NCBI GenBank assembly: GCA_934153945.1
Contig: CAKPFM010000006.1
Coordinates: 27,318 to 91,317 of the forward strand
Direction of reading: 5' to 3'
DNA: 64,000 nucleotides
Origin: an uncultured Bacilli bacterium
GTDB lineage: Bacteria > Bacillota_I > Bacilli_A > RF39 > UBA660
A program made the translations under genes and the position numbers. Within the stretch, counting starts at the first letter, position 1, and each line of letters begins with the position of its first letter. Of this stretch, positions 12,888 to 63,985 are shown one piece after another. A model generated the notes under the pieces. It was given only the letters and a program-made list of their open reading frames with translations. It had not been told where the DNA came from and ran no database searches.

Positions 12888-12972
12888 ATAATCACCTATT
12901 TAAAGATACGAATAATGGTTTCATTTTATGAATATTATTTTTTTATTAATCCATATTATTAATGGTGATAAA

Positions 12973-13137
12973 ATGGAGAAGGATCAAAAAATAAATTGTA
13001 ATGTTCATGATTGTGAACATTGTGATTGTGAAGGAGATTGTTGTAAACTTAAAAAAATAAAAGTTTGTAATTGTGATGGATGTGGTTGTAAAGAAACTAC
13101 TATGTGTGATAGTTACAAAGAAAAAACAAGTAAATAA
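12973..13137 (+). CDS. Small Cys-rich protein (DUF1540-like), 54 aa with 14 Cys
   Basis: MEKDQKINCNVHDCEHCDCEGDCCKLKKIKVCNCDGCGCKETTMCDSY. GGTGA SD 4 nt upstream of ATG 12973. Divergent from the activase operon and followed by a terminator. Confidence 0.6.
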   Translation: MEKDQKINCNVHDCEHCDCEGDCCKLKKIKVCNCDGCGCKETTMCDSYKEKTSK

Positions 13138-13154: not shown

Positions 13155-13292
13155 AAATATATTTTTCATTATTTATCTATTTTATATTGTATATAAAACA
13201 TTTGTTTGATATAATGAATATGGATACATTTGAAATACATCAGATGCTTTCCCTTTCATTTATTTATTAATATTTGAAAGGTGGTGATATTT

Positions 13293-13370
13293 ATGACAAA
13301 AAGAGAATTATCTCAATTTATTATAATATTACTATTATTCTTTGTAATAATTATATTATTATTTAAATAA
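13293..13370 (+). CDS. 25-aa hydrophobic peptide, type I toxin-like (copy A1)
   Basis: MTKRELSQFIIILLLFFVIIILLFK. SD AAAGGTGGTGA 6 nt upstream. Promoter TTGTAT(13187-13192)-N17-TGaTATAAT(13210-15). The predicted mRNA 5' end GGATACATTTGAA is perfectly complementary to TTCAAATGTATCC just before the T-run at ~13443-13461. CCCTTTCA upstream can pair with the SD TGAAAGG. Confidence 0.65.
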   Translation: MTKRELSQFIIILLLFFVIIILLFK

Positions 13371-13484
13371 TAAAAGCATCCGATTTCACAACTTAGTGAT
13401 TTCAGATGCACTTCCAATAAGGGATTGCATTTGATTCTGACATTCAAATGTATCCTTTTTTATTTTATGGAAATACTTCCATCT
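13366..13484 (-). ncRNA. Predicted antisense RNA (antitoxin candidate) convergent with copy A1, overlapping its 3' UTR, terminator and stop codon
   Basis: Minus-strand promoter TTGTTA(13519-13514)-N17-TGaTATCAT(13496-13491). Minus-strand terminator hairpin GCATC..GATGC (13376-13409), followed by TTTTATTATTT. Confidence 0.45.
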
Positions 13485-13653
13485 ATATACATGATATCAC
13501 ATATTTTGTTTTTTAACAATGTATTTTCATTATTTATATATTTTATATTGTGTGTAAAACATTTGTTTGGTATAATGAATATGGATACGTTTGAAATATA
13601 TCAGATGCTTTCCCTTTCATTTATTTCTTAATATTTGAAAGGTGGTGATATTT

Positions 13654-13731
13654 ATGACAAAAAGAGAATTATCTCTATTTATTATAATATTACTATTATT
13701 TTTTGTAATAATTATATTATTATTTAAATAA
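13654..13731 (+). CDS. 25-aa hydrophobic peptide, type I toxin-like (copy A2)
   Basis: MTKRELSLFIIILLLFFVIIILLFK (one substitution relative to A1). Promoter TTGTGT(13548-53)-N17-TGgTATAAT(13571-76). Same SD and the same 5'/3' complementarity (GGATACGTTTGAA / TTCAAATGTATCC). Confidence 0.65.
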   Translation: MTKRELSLFIIILLLFFVIIILLFK

Positions 13732-13845
13732 TAAAAGCATCTGTTTCACAACTTAGTGATTTCAGATGCTATATCCAACAAGGGATTGCATTTGATTCTC
13801 GAATTCAAATGTATCCTTTTTTATTTTATGGAAATTCTTCCATCT
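13727..13845 (-). ncRNA. Predicted antisense RNA convergent with copy A2
   Basis: Minus-strand promoter TTGTTA(13880-13875)-N17-TATCAT(13857-13852). Terminator hairpin GCATCTG...CAGATGC (13737-13769) plus a T-rich tail. Confidence 0.45.
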
Positions 13846-13873
13846 ATATACATGATATCACATATTTTGTTTT

Positions 13874-14455
13874 TTAACAAGTTAGACTATCAAAAAAACT
13901 ATCAAATAATTTAATACTATTATCATCCATTATAGATTCAGGATGCCACTGTACTCCTATAAAAAATTTCTTATTCTTATCCTCTACTGCCTCTATAACA
14001 TTATCACTACTTCTAGCGCTTACAGTTAAAAATGTATTTGTAATATGTTCTATATGTCTACTATTAACAAATATTTTATCTTTATTTAAAATAGAATATA
14101 ATTTACTATCATAATTAATAAATACTTCATGTACATATAAATTGTTACTTTGATGATTAAAATTATTTAATTTTTCCAAAGTACCATCTACTACACTCAT
14201 CATCTGCATTCCTAAACATATACCTAAAGTTGGTATATCTTTTTCATATAAATATTTAACAAATTCTATTTCTAAATCAGTATAATCACTACCACCTTGT
14301 AATATAAATCCATCACAAAAATTAGCTATTTTAATAAATTCTTCCAAATCATTAGGATAAATACCTACACATATTTTATTATAACTATCTATTACTTTTT
14401 TTATCTCTTTATTTAAAGTATATTTATCACTATTTCTTAATAATACCCCTATCAT
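13874..14455 (-). CDS. Class I glutamine amidotransferase / peptidase C26 (gamma-glutamyl hydrolase-like)
   Basis: GICLGMQMM nucleophile-elbow Cys and GVQWHPE His-Glu motif. Confidence 0.8.
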   Translation of the reverse strand: MIGVLLRNSDKYTLNKEIKKVIDSYNKICVGIYPNDLEEFIKIANFCDGFILQGGSDYTDLEIEFVKYLYEKDIPTLGICLGMQMMSVVDGTLEKLNNFNHQSNNLYVHEVFINYDSKLYSILNKDKIFVNSRHIEHITNTFLTVSARSSDNVIEAVEDKNKKFFIGVQWHPESIMDDNSIKLFDSFFDSLTC

Positions 14456-22317: not shown

Positions 22318-23394
22318 ATGAATAATAAAATAAAAGATAAAGTTGTAACTATATTATTTTCATCAATCTTAATTATTTTTTTCTTAATTAATGTGATTAA
22401 AAAAGATGATGATATATCTATTTCTGAACGAAGAAAATTAGAAAAGTTCCCTACTCTTACAATTAACAATCTAATGGATGGAATATTCTTTAAAAAGTTT
22501 GAAACTTATACTACTGATCAATTTATAAAAAGAGACTATTTTAGAAAATTAAAAGTCAATTTAGAATTAAATATTAAAAAAAACTATAATAATTTATATA
22601 ATTATAATGGATATATAGTTGAACAAACATTTCCATTAAATAAAAATTCTATTATAAATTTAGCTAATAAAATGAATTCTATTAAAGAAACATATTTAAC
22701 TAATAACAATATTTATTTTACTATTGTTCCAGATAAAAATTATTTTATTAATAATGGTAATTTAAAATTAGATTATAATGAACTTACTAATTTAATGAAA
22801 AATAATTTAAAAGATTTTAATTATATAGATATATTTAGTATATTAAATTTAGATGATTATTATAAAACTGATACTCATTGGAAACAAGAAAACATAAAAA
22901 AGGTAGCTCTTCTTTTATCAAAAAATATGAATTTTGATTTTTATGATAACTATAATGAATTAGAAATAACTTCATTTAAAGGAGTTTATTCCGGTCAACT
23001 TCCTATTAAAACCGAATTAGATAAAATAACTATTTTAACAAATGATATTATAAAAAACAGTACAGTTTATAATTATGAGACAAAAAAAGAAACAGAAGTT
23101 TATGATTTAACTAAAGTTAATTCATTAGATAAATATGATATATATTTATCAGGAGCTGTTTCAATTATTGATATTATAAATAATAATTCTAGTAATAAAG
23201 AATTAATCGTATTTAGAGATTCTTATGGTAGCAGTTTAGTACCCCTACTTATTCAAGGTTATAAAAAAATAACTGTCATTGATACTAGATATGTATCACC
23301 TAAGATATTAAATGAATATGTCAATTTTAATAATAAAGATGTATTATTTATATATGGAGTTATATCAGTAAATAATAGTTCTTCAATAAGATAA
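22318..23394 (+). CDS. DHHW-family / AlgJ-PatB-like extracytoplasmic O-acetyltransferase partner
   Basis: N-terminal TM anchor. YKTDTHW motif. FRDSYGSSL near the C-terminus. Confidence 0.65.
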   Translation: MNNKIKDKVVTILFSSILIIFFLINVIKKDDDISISERRKLEKFPTLTINNLMDGIFFKKFETYTTDQFIKRDYFRKLKVNLELNIKKNYNNLYNYNGYIVEQTFPLNKNSIINLANKMNSIKETYLTNNNIYFTIVPDKNYFINNGNLKLDYNELTNLMKNNLKDFNYIDIFSILNLDDYYKTDTHWKQENIKKVALLLSKNMNFDFYDNYNELEITSFKGVYSGQLPIKTELDKITILTNDIIKNSTVYNYETKKETEVYDLTKVNSLDKYDIYLSGAVSIIDIINNNSSNKELIVFRDSYGSSLVPLLIQGYKKITVIDTRYVSPKILNEYVNFNNKDVLFIYGVISVNNSSSIR

Positions 23395-23501
23395 AAAACA
23401 TCAATATTACTTGTACACAAAACATTTGTTTATTATAATATTTATAAGAACATTTGATGTGAGTGTCGTCCTTCAATCTTGAAAAAGAAAGGAGGGATAC
23501 A

Positions 23502-23594
23502 ATGAAGAAAAGAACTTTTACTATAAAAGTCCTTCGTCTTATTGCTATCATTTTATTACTCCTTACCTTATTGGTAATAGCAATAAAATTATGA
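23502..23594 (+). CDS. 30-aa hydrophobic peptide, type I toxin-like (copy B1)
   Basis: MKKRTFTIKVLRLIAIILLLLTLLVIAIKL. SD AAAGGAGGG. Promoter TTGTAC(23411-16)-N17-TATAAT(23434-39). 5' GAACATTTGAT..GTGAGTGTCGTCC pairs with 3' GGCGACATTCAC..ATCAAATGTTC, followed by CCCC plus a T6 run. Confidence 0.65.
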   Translation: MKKRTFTIKVLRLIAIILLLLTLLVIAIKL

Positions 23595-23698
23595 CACTCT
23601 TTCATCTCTGATTGAGTGTCAATACTAATTTTTTAGAGGCGACATTCACTTGCAGAATCAAATGTTCCCCTTTTTTATTTTATGCAAGAATACTTGCT
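23583..23698 (-). ncRNA. Predicted antisense RNA convergent with copy B1
   Basis: Minus-strand promoter TTGTAA(23733-28)-N17-TGcTATTAT(23710-05). Hairpin GACACTC...GAGTGTC (23593-23620), then ATAATTTTATT. Overlaps the toxin stop codon. Confidence 0.4.
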
Positions 23699-23908
23699 AA
23701 ATACATAATAGCATAAAAAAGAACTTTTTACAAGTTCTTCTTTATATCTATTAAACTATAAAACAATATATTAAATCTAATATGTTGATTCAAATAAAAA
23801 AATATCAATACTACTTGTATACAAAACATTTGTTTGCTATAATACTTACAGGAACATTTAGTTGTTGAGTGTCTACCAAATCTCTTATAGAGAGGAGGTT
23901 TGATAATA

Positions 23909-24001
23909 ATGAAAAAAAGAAACTTTATTATTAAAGTTCTTAGGTACATTACTATCATTTTATTTCTTCTTATCATTTTGATAGTAGTAATAAAAAAATG
24001 A
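23909..24001 (+). CDS. 30-aa hydrophobic peptide, type I toxin-like (copy B2)
   Basis: MKKRNFIIKVLRYITIILFLLIILIVVIKK. SD AGAGGAGG. Promoter TTGTAT(23815-20)-N17-TGcTATAAT(23838-43). 5' GGAACATT..GTTGAGTGTCTACC pairs with 3' GGTAGACATTCAAC..AATGTTCC plus a T6 run. Confidence 0.65.
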   Translation: MKKRNFIIKVLRYITIILFLLIILIVVIKK

Positions 24002-24108
24002 CACTTAATTCTTTTTTGAATTAAATGTCGATCCAAAATTTTTTTAGGTAGACATTCAACATAACAAAACTGAATGTTCCTTTTTTATTTTATGCAAGAA
24101 TACTTGCT
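23992..24108 (-). ncRNA. Predicted antisense RNA convergent with copy B2
   Basis: Minus-strand promoter TTGTAA(24143-38)-N17-TGtTATTAT(24120-15). 12-bp hairpin GACATTTAATTC-A6-GAATTAAGTGTC (24000-24029), followed by ATTTTTTTAT. Confidence 0.45.
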
Positions 24109-24120
24109 AAATACATAATA

Positions 24121-24150
24121 ACATAAAAAAGAACTTTTTACAAGTTCTTC
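24121..24150 (-). terminator. Terminator of the rnf operon (its stem also carries the -35 of the B2 antisense promoter)
   Basis: Minus strand: AAGAACTT-gtaaa-AAGTTCTT hairpin followed by TTTTATGT, 9 nt after the rnfB stop codon. Confidence 0.7.
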
Positions 24151-24158
24151 TATATCAA

Positions 24159-24416
24159 TCAATTTAATTCTTTTAAGAATTCTTCCATTTCCTTTAATTT
24201 TTCACCTCTTAAAGGCTTACACTTTTTATAATTTTCTATATTTTTACACATAGCTTCTGCCATACCTTCACAGCTTCCAAAACCACAACTACCACAATTA
24301 AATCCTGGTAGTCTTTTTAAATACTCATCTTTTTTAGAATTATCTTCATTATCAAGTAAATTTAAAACTATTCCAATTATTAAACCTGTAAAAGTTATGA
24401 TAACAATTCCTATCAT
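24159..24416 (-). CDS. rnfB: Minimal RnfB-like subunit (N-terminal TM plus a single Fe-S Cys cluster domain; no ferredoxin-type domains)
   Basis: Start refined to ATG 24414-24416 (GAGGAGG 5 nt upstream). MIGIVIITFTGLIIGIVLN then LPGFNCGSCGFGSCEGMAEAMC...CKP. 85 aa. No CxxCxxCxxxCP motifs. Confidence 0.7.
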   Translation of the reverse strand: MIGIVIITFTGLIIGIVLNLLDNEDNSKKDEYLKRLPGFNCGSCGFGSCEGMAEAMCKNIENYKKCKPLRGEKLKEMEEFLKELN

Positions 24417-24512
24417 TTTTTCCTCCTCATACAACTACTACAATCATGATTACAATTATTTTTTTTATATAACATAATTGTTAATATAATAAGTAAAATT
24501 AATAATATATAA

Positions 24513-51907: not shown

Positions 51908-52373
51908 TATATTAAAAATTATTAAAATAGAATGAATTTATTTCTGTAATAGAGCTATAAAATCTATAACTAACAAATATTATTTAATATATATATTGTT
52001 TATTCTTTTCCTATAAAAAAATCAAGAAAATAATTCTTGATTTTTTCTTATATAACTTCAAATTTATGAAGTTGAATTATAATATTTAATAGAAATTAAA
52101 AAAGCAAGTGAACCATATAAAATATTCCACTTGTCAAGGAATAAATAAAAAAAATGATTTTTGTACAATACAAAAATCATCTTCTTCAAAATAACTAAAT
52201 TAACCAATAAATTATACCACTATTTTGTCCATTTTATGGGGTACAATTTATTAAGTACTCAACATTTGCGTATTAAGTATTCCCATCTTATTTTATGCAA
52301 GTTTCCTTGACTACATACTAATGATAACATAATTTATTGAGATTATCAAAAAAGTATTTTTTTAAATTTTTAG

Positions 52374-63740: not shown

Positions 63741-63985
63741 CAAAAAACAGTAATTTATCCACAAGGGACGAATTACTGTTGTATCCGCGGTACCACCCTA
63801 ATTATCACATAGTGATCTCTTTAGTACGTAATGTGATAACGGATTACCTTCCGGCTTAAACTACTTAATTTCATCTAAGCAACTCTAGAGTGTTCTTCCT
63901 ATACATATTTATGTTAGCTTCCACCATATCTAACTCGCTTTATAAAGGAATGTATAGTACTTTTCTCTTTCATAGTTATTAAATT
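63741..63985 (-). promoter_or_regulatory. T-box riboswitch leader, probable Asn (AAC) specifier
   Basis: Minus strand: Stem I (AGAG..AGTA, upper helix CTATACAT/ATGTATAG, AGCGAG bulge, GGTGGAA distal loop). Specifier loop GAAG-AAC-A-CTCT (AAC at 63892-63894). T-box sequence AGGGTGGTACCGCGG (63785-63799). Terminator AACAGTAATT...AATTACTGTT plus a T-run (63741-63780). Confidence 0.85.

Follow-up and report, generated by a model that had tools for sequence, protein, structure and literature searches.

RESULTS

Two tandem units lie between a DHHW-family gene and an Rnf-Nqr gene row

We analyzed a 64,000-nucleotide stretch of contig CAKPFM010000006.1 (assembly GCA_934153945.1, from an uncultured Bacilli bacterium), which we refer to as the window and which has a G+C content of 22 to 27%. 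Window positions 23393-24155 hold two head-to-tail units, B1 (~23393-23799) and B2 (~23797-24155), which we interpret as probable type I toxin-antitoxin modules. Upstream of them is a DHHW-family gene that ends at 23394, and downstream is a minus-strand gene with a Pfam FeS domain (24159-24434), the last of an Rnf-Nqr gene row. An initial annotation of this DNA had described two units with a period of 407 bp. The two units are indeed present, but the period is not exact, the start-to-start distance being 404 to 410 bp depending on the segment. B1 and B2 are 78% identical in the open reading frame (ORF), 87% in the promoter and 97% in the last 77 nt.

The ORF of B1 (23502..23594 [+]) runs from an ATG at 23502 to a stop ending at 23594 and encodes MKKRTFTIKVLRLIAIILLLLTLLVIAIKL, 30 amino acids plus stop, while that of B2 (23909..24001 [+]) runs from an ATG at 23909 to a stop ending at 24001 and encodes MKKRNFIIKVLRYITIILFLLIILIVVIKK, also 30 amino acids plus stop. 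Both peptides are encoded just as the initial annotation had written them, and in each case a Shine-Dalgarno (SD) sequence, AGGAGG, lies 6 to 10 nt before the ATG (23490-23495 in B1 and 23893-23898 in B2). Each ORF is preceded by a predicted promoter of the sigma-70 type with a 17-nt spacer. The B1 toxin promoter (23411..23439 [+]) has a −35 element, TTGTAC, at 23411-23416 and a −10 element, TATAAT, at 23434-23439, with the box AAACATTTGTTT at 23420-23431 in the spacer. The B2 toxin promoter (23815..23843 [+]) has TTGTAT at 23815-23820, AAACATTTGTTT at 23824-23835 and TATAAT at 23838-23843.

The window contains another tandem pair of the family, A1 and A2 (13163..13884 [+]; period 361, 95% identical), with the same promoter box at 13196-13207 and 13557-13568 and the peptide MTKRELS(Q/L)FIIILLLFFVIIILLFK. 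The two pairs had been assigned to one family, with a shared promoter block. That block is present in all four copies, and the 3′ block and the overall architecture are common to them as well.

The two ends of the predicted toxin mRNA pair in two covarying helices

We modeled the transcripts from 7 nt past the −10 element to the end of the U-tract. In the predicted B1 mRNA (23446..23683 [+], ~238 nt; U-tract 23670-23683), the 5′ end pairs with the 3′ end in two helices, H1 (23448-23458 : 23657-23667) and H2 (23459-23471 : 23638-23649), and the SD sequence lies inside a hairpin stacked on H2. The predicted B2 mRNA (23850..24093 [+], ~244 nt; U-tract 24081-24093) has H1 at 23850-23862 : 24069-24081 and H2 at 23864-23877 : 24047-24060. 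The four helices quoted in the initial annotation read as stated, and RNAfold placed both helices in the minimum-energy structure of both predicted transcripts. The B1 fold has an energy of −74.2 kcal/mol, against a mean of −40.1 for shuffled sequences (z = −8.29), and the B2 fold has an energy of −74.8 kcal/mol, against a mean of −37.6 (z = −9.37); in neither case was any of 200 shuffles as good.

By direct reading of the sequences, about five two-sided changes separate B1 from B2 in the two helices, and the initial annotation had taken such changes as a sign of a selected RNA structure. We therefore turned to a sample of 21 complete modules. Besides those of the window, it contained modules from related metagenome-assembled genomes (MAGs), drawn from 17 genome loci and 4 metagenome loci. 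About six subfamilies, which differ in the sequences of their helices, could be told apart in the sample. H1 and H2 were part of the minimum-energy fold of all 21, the first nucleotides pairing just before the U-tract. RNAalifold, applied to a MAFFT alignment of the 21 modules, retained these two helices only (columns 1-13 : 270-282 and 19-31 : 247-260). In the alignment, 93.7% of cells were paired, against 79.5% in 500 shuffles, none of which was as high, and only 34 to 47% were paired when the partners were slid by 1 to 3 columns. Two-sided changes occurred in 20 of the 25 pairs, against 12.7 in shuffles (none as high), and the covariation score was 0.592, against 0.317 for the control. More homologues thus left the covariation in place, where its disappearance had been named as the result that would speak against the proposal. 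G-U pairs outnumbered A-C mismatches by 40 to 10 in the long-range helices, which points to a constraint on the plus-strand RNA rather than on the DNA. The slid-partner control preserves the relatedness of the sequences, and we regard it as decisive. The comparison strongly supports selection for the end-pairing as an RNA structure.

Across the ensemble of the closed form, nt 1-12 have a probability of no more than 0.17 of being unpaired, and for the SD sequence this value is 0.05 to 0.48. When the 3′ 95 nt were blocked in silico, the 5′ end formed a hairpin of its own, and the SD sequence was at least partly still in a stem.

The same strands form two local hairpins

The 3′ strands of H1 and H2 can also pair with each other locally and then form a terminator hairpin directly before the U-tract, which begins 0 to 3 nt past the 3′ strand of H1. 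In B2 this alternative hairpin is at 24051-24059 : 24072-24079 (+). Across the family it is 91.6% paired, with compensatory changes in six of its eight pairs, against 14 to 38% for slid partners. A 5′ hairpin can likewise form between the two 5′ strands; it is 87% paired and has many G-U pairs. With the long-range pairs forbidden, every module took both local hairpins; with all pairs allowed, the long-range fold was favored in every module, by 7 to 26 kcal/mol (21.9 in B1 and 25.7 in B2). According to these models, the mRNA has two mutually exclusive folds.

A convergent antisense RNA is predicted to cover the 3′ strands of both helices

On the minus strand, the initial annotation had proposed promoters of the form TTGTAA-N17-(TGn)TATTAT, and a scan located them at 23733→23705 and 24143→24115. 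The predicted antitoxin promoter of B1 (23705..23739 [−]) has its −35 element, TTGTAA, at 23733→23728, a 17-nt spacer with TGC, and its −10 element, TATTAT, at 23710→23705; that of B2 (24115..24149 [−]) has TTGTAA at 24143→24138 and TATTAT, with a TG, at 24120→24115. TTGnnA-N17(TGn)-TAnnAT is found at a fixed position in 19 of the 21 modules. As for the two exceptions, one lacks the −35 element only and the other is cut by the end of its locus. The −35 element had also been placed inside a hairpin. This holds for B1, where it lies in the loop of a hairpin at 23719-23739, and for B2, where the surrounding hairpin (24129-24149) is terminator-like and, as had been noted, stands at the end of the rnf row, 9 nt past the stop of the FeS gene that closes it. 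It does not hold as a hallmark of the modules, and we rejected the hairpin as a defining feature of the family because just 7 or 8 of 19 modules have it.

The predicted B1 antisense RNA (23583..23698 [−], ~116 nt) has a 5′ hairpin at 23684-23697 and, over the toxin stop codon, a terminator hairpin at 23593-23620 with a U-run behind it. Its B2 counterpart (23990..24108 [−], ~119 nt) has a 5′ hairpin at 24094-24107 and a terminator hairpin at 24029→24000, again followed by a U-run; the 12-bp stem of this terminator, at the stop codon of the peptide, had been pointed out before and was recovered by our scan. The predicted antisense RNAs are 116 to 125 nt long and fold into three hairpins (5′, middle and terminator), with z scores of −3.6 to −5.7 (−3.83 for B1 and −5.73 for B2).

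Those of B1 and B2 (23698→23583 and 24108→23990) span the 3′ strands of both helices. The middle antisense hairpin complements the terminator hairpin of the mRNA; in B1 it is complementary to the 3′ helix strands of the mRNA. This middle part is a perfect version of the sequence that the 5′ end of the mRNA mimics imperfectly. Perfect complementarity to the cognate mRNA extends over 101 to 106 nt (101 nt in B1), at the 3′ end of the transcript (its last ~100 nt). Predicted duplex energies are −150 to −172 kcal/mol for cognate pairs, about −140 for A1 with A2, −63 to −67 for B1 with B2, and −35 to −49 for A with B. On these energies, A1 and A2 should cross-neutralize each other, and B1 and B2 should be largely specific.

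The toxin promoter contains a LexA-type box

The 12-mer AAACATTTGTTT is identical in A1, A2, B1 and B2 despite the divergence of the A and B pairs elsewhere. Within the window, ACAAAACATTTGTTT had 5 matches with up to 2 mismatches (1.69 expected) and AAACNNNNGTTT had 6 (2.24 expected), 4 of the 6 being the modules. The reverse complement of AAACATTTGTTT is AAACAAATGTTT, which is one base off GAACAAATGTTT (11 of 12 identical), the sequence of the Clostridioides difficile recA operator that is bound by LexA in vitro (PMC4234289). The Gram-positive LexA consensus is GAAC-N4-GTT(C/T) (PMC4234289). Judged as an operator of this type, AAACATTTGTTT lies inside a promoter spacer and matches GAACAAATGTTT at 11 of 12 positions, with both outer bases deviating from the recA box.

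The recA genes of the lineage have a Cheo-type box, GAACAAATGTT[CT], upstream in all nine loci, 8 to 9 nt before TTGACA (L016 1558-1569; L060 to L067 around 2921-2933). It reads GAACAAATGTTC in five loci, GAACAAATGTTT in three and GAACAAACGTTT in one, and none of the six 7-kb loci scanned in full has another box of this kind. The toxin promoter with its AAACATTTGTTT spacer also precedes genes for RecX, a RecG-wedge-like protein (22 bits, slightly below the Pfam cutoff of 23), two Bro-N proteins and a KilA-N protein in unrelated contigs (L008 4499-4527; L018, L026 and L029; L022 2048-2076; L027 1046-1074; L032 2310-2338). This combination of promoter and spacer is a candidate SOS regulon signature of low-GC Bacilli.

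Two B2-like modules, at L004 6153-6489 and L015 1-180, each in tandem with a module of another subtype, have a different toxin promoter, with the −10 sequence TATACT, and GAACACTTGTTT lies across their −35 element.

The block and helix H1 both contain AACATTTG, and we considered whether the block might be an RNA partner of H1. We rejected this, since the block is invariant and does not covary with H1, whereas H1 varies among the subfamilies; the block is thus not an RNA element.

The peptides are short and hydrophobic

ORFs of 25 to 30 amino acids with an SD sequence, on predicted mRNAs of 226 to 253 nt, are present in 20 of the 21 modules, within the generic range for type I toxins (a hydrophobic peptide of 20 to 60 amino acids, an SD sequence and an mRNA of 150 to 400 nt). 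The peptides have a basic N terminus and a hydrophobic body. Differences within the family number 116, 39 and 141 at codon positions 1, 2 and 3, a pattern indicating that the peptide is kept hydrophobic. Searched against Pfam and NCBIfam at E ≤ 10, the four window peptides gave chance matches to unrelated families only. We infer that the peptide damages the membrane.

The modules are recurrent and accessory in uncultured gut Bacilli

In GTDB genomes, a scan for the promoter block found 17 loci, 16 of which carry this kind of module. Nearly all of the 17 are in MAGs of uncultured Bacilli or Erysipelotrichaceae, from rabbit, rumen and mouse gut. Three further distinct modules, in four loci, came from a metagenome scan, and BLAST found extra tandem copies; in related MAGs, a single 8-kb locus holds as many as two. 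No credible match to the module was obtained from Rfam on either strand, at the gathering score for the whole window or at E ≤ 10 for 23350-24200. The B1/B2 pair had no blastn match in plasmid and phage collections. In viral contigs, the promoter pattern had 0 matches, and the 3′ A-tract motif had 19, none of which was a module by nhmmer, so that we regard them as chance.

The initial annotation had expected more copies elsewhere in the genome. Within the window, an nhmmer search with the 21-module profile detected no additional complete copy. A fifth module, decayed and belonging to a third subtype, lies at 52240..52340 (−). It retains the antitoxin promoter (TTGATA-N17(TGT)-TATCAT), together with the 5′ hairpin and the initial ~60 nt of the antisense RNA, the toxin ORF and the terminator being gone. 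This remnant resembles L013 and L023. Similar antitoxin-only remnants are found at L002 7210-7330 and L006 7228-7408. A close relative with 96% identity (L028 190-525) carries a single A-type module in place of the window's two, and its toxin ORF is frameshifted by a 1-nt deletion, with the RNA helices intact.

The site between the DHHW and FeS genes is polymorphic among relatives. It is empty in L054 and L055 (L054 5040-5120), where 8 bp separate the called genes, with one hairpin across them; the DHHW protein is 84% identical in a relative with this arrangement. L056 (4950-5400) has B1 alone, L057 (5077-8650) has a 3.5-kb insert of four genes to which no function was assigned, and the window (23395-24158) has two copies. 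By this comparison, the B1/B2 pair is an insertion relative to its relatives. The site polymorphism, the single-copy and frameshifted relatives and the antitoxin-only remnants are sequence evidence that the cassette is accessory. Tandem copies, remnants, a frameshifted toxin and a site that is empty or holds one or two copies are typical of toxin-antitoxin systems.

Modules often lie ~30 to 300 nt from tRNA genes (Ser, Arg, Leu, Ala and Thr; L002, L003, L004, L007, L023 and L030), and a terminator hairpin usually precedes the antitoxin-promoter side of such modules.

At L010 72-250, a B2-like module is cut right after its ORF by unrelated, more G+C-rich sequence, which may reflect an insertion or an assembly joint. 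Elsewhere in the window, a 69-amino-acid cysteine-rich ORF with many CxxC-like motifs and no Pfam match lies directly upstream of A1 (12928-13137 [+]), and a T-box leader (Rfam RF00230, 139.5 bits) lies at 63761-63982 (−).

DISCUSSION

We propose that B1 and B2 are diverged, largely orthogonal chromosomal type I toxin-antitoxin modules of an unannotated family in uncultured low-GC gut Bacilli, and we put the probability of this reading at roughly 0.78. The sequence data support a family that is new but of a known kind, a toxin-antitoxin system of type I built like BsrG/SR4, with toxicity and transcription as predicted properties. The local terminator fold, the LexA-type nature of the box, the bsrG/SR4-like design and the insertion all go beyond the initial annotation, and the fold, the box and the likeness to bsrG/SR4 do not contradict it.

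Each module would produce an mRNA of ~240 nt for a peptide of 25 to 30 amino acids, together with a convergent antisense RNA of ~116 nt. If the two 5′ segments of the mRNA are called a and b and the two 3′ segments b′ and a′, they could pair either locally (a:b and b′:a′) or over long range (a:a′ and b:b′). The local fold would form during transcription, which the b′:a′ hairpin would terminate. The RNA would then refold into the long-range form, in which pairing extends from the very start of the transcript down to the U-tract base and stacks on the hairpin that hides the SD sequence, and this closed form would be translationally inert and protected from nucleases. The antisense RNA would invade the 3′ strands and displace the 5′ end, and the long duplex so created would be a substrate for RNase III, as in the action of SR4 on bsrG. 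With a LexA-type operator between its −35 and −10 elements, the toxin promoter could respond to DNA damage by raising the toxin mRNA above the constitutive antitoxin, as in tisB/IstR-1, and the peptide would then damage the membrane.

Several observations weigh against this picture. The peptides match no known toxin family, and exact look-up of ten peptide variants in a collection of 15 billion proteins found none on record, which suggests that they were never called as genes. All ends of both RNAs are predicted positions. The SD sequence is paired in the long-range fold, in a mimic of the antitoxin-bound state and in the local folds of four modules. The 21 sequences represent about six subfamilies, so that independent compensatory events are fewer than the cell counts imply. 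Further points concern the box. It was through the promoter block that 19 of the 21 modules came to light, and its conservation outside the window is therefore ascertained rather than independent. At its two outer positions, the toxin box has A/T instead of the G/C or G/T of the recA boxes, a difference that would make LexA binding weaker. Finally, a tblastn search with Bacillus subtilis LexA found no lexA gene in the 528 kb of sequence examined.

A different account of the ORF would make it a nontoxic small membrane protein, for example, a modulator of a membrane complex, whose level is tuned by a cis-antisense RNA and by folding of the mRNA. The toxicity proposed here is indeed deduced for a peptide that resembles no known toxin, the coding constraint on the ORF would fit any functional peptide, and the SD sequence is sequestered in every state that we modeled. 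We nevertheless consider a harmless product unlikely. Tandem arrays, presence/absence polymorphism, antitoxin-only remnants and a frameshifted toxin are traits of addictive or selfish toxin-antitoxin systems; three layers of silencing (operator, closed mRNA and perfect antisense RNA) would be hard to justify for such a product; and the design equals that of a proven toxin system, bsrG/SR4. It is far more improbable still that the complementary ends are a feature of the DNA, as terminal inverted repeats of a miniature mobile element or as a repeated palindrome, with the ORF and promoters arising by chance in AT-rich sequence. The unit does behave as an insertion relative to a close relative, it is repeated, often beside tRNA genes, and inverted repeats do surround a core of ~200 bp. 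These repeats, however, covary instead of staying conserved and tolerate G-U pairs far more than A-C mismatches, and the most conserved parts, the two promoters, lie outside them; on these grounds we ruled out a miniature mobile element. The ORF frame, the SD spacing and the codon-periodic substitutions are also kept, and the plasmid, phage and viral collections yielded no module.

The control of the toxin promoter is more evenly contested. Even with B1 and B2 taken as toxin-antitoxin modules, AAACATTTGTTT might be the operator of another repressor or an element of promoter strength, and the toxin would then be free of LexA control. We give this possibility considerable weight, somewhat short of an even chance. 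Both half-sites of AAACATTTGTTT are AAAC/GTTT where the recA boxes have GAAC, and several genes behind the block, such as those for KilA-N and a membrane protein, are not classical SOS genes; the failure to find lexA in those 528 kb and the ascertainment of most carriers through the block itself point the same way. On the other side stand the 11-of-12 match to the recA box of the lineage, which extends to a LexA operator validated in vitro, the RecX, RecG-like and Bro-N antirepressor-like genes behind the block, and the presence of GAACACTTGTTT in two modules with an unrelated promoter. The block also stays invariant while H1 varies, which leaves it without a role as an RNA pairing partner. 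Because of the recA-box match, the RecX and Bro-N-type genes and the GAACACTTGTTT modules, we consider the AAACATTTGTTT block a probable LexA operator, and the toxin is possibly under SOS control.

Taken to its full extent, the proposal would make this family the first among type I toxins outside the Proteobacteria to be under LexA/SOS control, with an mRNA that works as a four-strand switch. Its 5′ end, an imperfect copy of the antitoxin, would capture the terminator hairpin after termination and lock the RNA, and the antitoxin would compete for the same 3′ target. We offer this combined claim tentatively, at somewhat less than an even chance.

The cassette is missed by current annotation, yet it is recurrent and often multicopy in small-genome Bacilli of the rabbit, rumen and mouse gut. 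Its roughly six natural helix "alleles" amount to an unusually clean comparative proof of a 5′/3′ lock in a type I toxin mRNA, and the same 3′ strand appears to be selected for a second, competing terminator fold as well. Until now, the dissection of a folding pathway of this sort has been mostly genetic, in hok and aapA1. If the link to LexA is correct, SOS-triggered membrane toxins of the TisB/DinQ kind would extend to Gram-positive gut bacteria, with a bearing on antibiotic tolerance. The B1 and B2 RNA pairs, being predicted to be orthogonal, are also potential design material for RNA devices.

Among known systems, searches for Fst/RNAII, TxpA/RatA, Hok/Sok, Ldr, TisB, Ibs and others gave no Pfam or NCBIfam toxin match and no Rfam antitoxin match beyond chance. 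The system that the modules resemble most in build is bsrG/SR4 of the B. subtilis SPbeta prophage (compare bsrE/SR5 and bsrH). In the bsrG mRNA, structure probing showed that nt 1-35 pair with nt 232-262 in a bulged helix, P1, with the SD sequence in a stem on top, and SR4 base-pairs with the 3′ half of P1, releasing the 5′ end and triggering decay by RNase III (PMC3834814). Our modules are predicted to have in common with it the convergent antisense RNA that overlaps the 3′ end of the toxin mRNA, a long-range helix in two parts on which the SD hairpin is stacked, and the antisense target. They differ in that the peptide is unrelated and the Rfam BsrG model (RF01412) gives 11.1 bits (E = 5.3), with 55 as its gathering score. 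Whereas bsrG has a separate terminator stem-loop after P1, the terminator here would come from the 3′ strands of the lock pairing with each other instead. The antisense RNA is also shorter, ~116 nt against 183 nt for SR4, the toxin promoter has a LexA-type box, and the module is chromosomal and intergenic, often beside tRNA genes, rather than located in a prophage.

Gram-positive systems generally have the antisense RNA on the 3′ side, and in txpA/RatA and yonT/SR6 of B. subtilis it overlaps the end of the ORF, as it does here (PMC8594479). The antitoxins of these two systems promote mRNA decay, much like the role proposed for ours. Their toxins, however, are unrelated proteins of 58 to 59 amino acids, no Rfam match links them to the modules, and a covarying 5′/3′ lock is not reported for them in the literature compared. 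In fst/RNAII from the par locus of the Enterococcus faecalis plasmid pAD1, another Gram-positive system, transcripts also converge on a shared terminator region and a 5′ structure limits translation. RNAII differs from our antisense RNA in pairing with 5′ direct repeats outside the overlap (PMC8594479), and no Fst signature was matched by the peptides in Pfam or NCBIfam at E ≤ 10.

The Gram-negative families hok/Sok and aapA1/IsoA1 have unrelated peptides and resemble the modules in the behavior of the mRNA. In hok/Sok of plasmid R1 and aapA1/IsoA1 of Helicobacter pylori, a long-distance interaction between the 5′ and 3′ ends locks the full-length mRNA, and metastable hairpins that form during transcription give rise to mutually exclusive folds. 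There, the antisense RNA targets the 5′ translation-initiation region of the 3′-processed mRNA; here, it would target the 3′ strands of the lock.

For the control of the promoter, the closest parallels are tisB/IstR-1 and dinQ/AgrB of Escherichia coli, in which LexA represses the toxin promoter, the antitoxin is constitutive and SOS induction out-titrates it (PMC8309996). The SOS-controlled type I toxins that this review covers are tisB and dinQ of E. coli, and a symE paper is among its references (PMC8309996). The antitoxins of tisB and dinQ are divergent or trans-encoded and act at the 5′ untranslated region, unlike those of our modules, and the E. coli box is CTGT-N8-ACAG where ours is of the Gram-positive GAAC-N4-GTT(C/T) type. 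LexA control is established in those systems and predicted from sequence here. The TisB and DinQ peptides themselves, at 27 to 29 amino acids and hydrophobic, are like those of the modules in both size and character.

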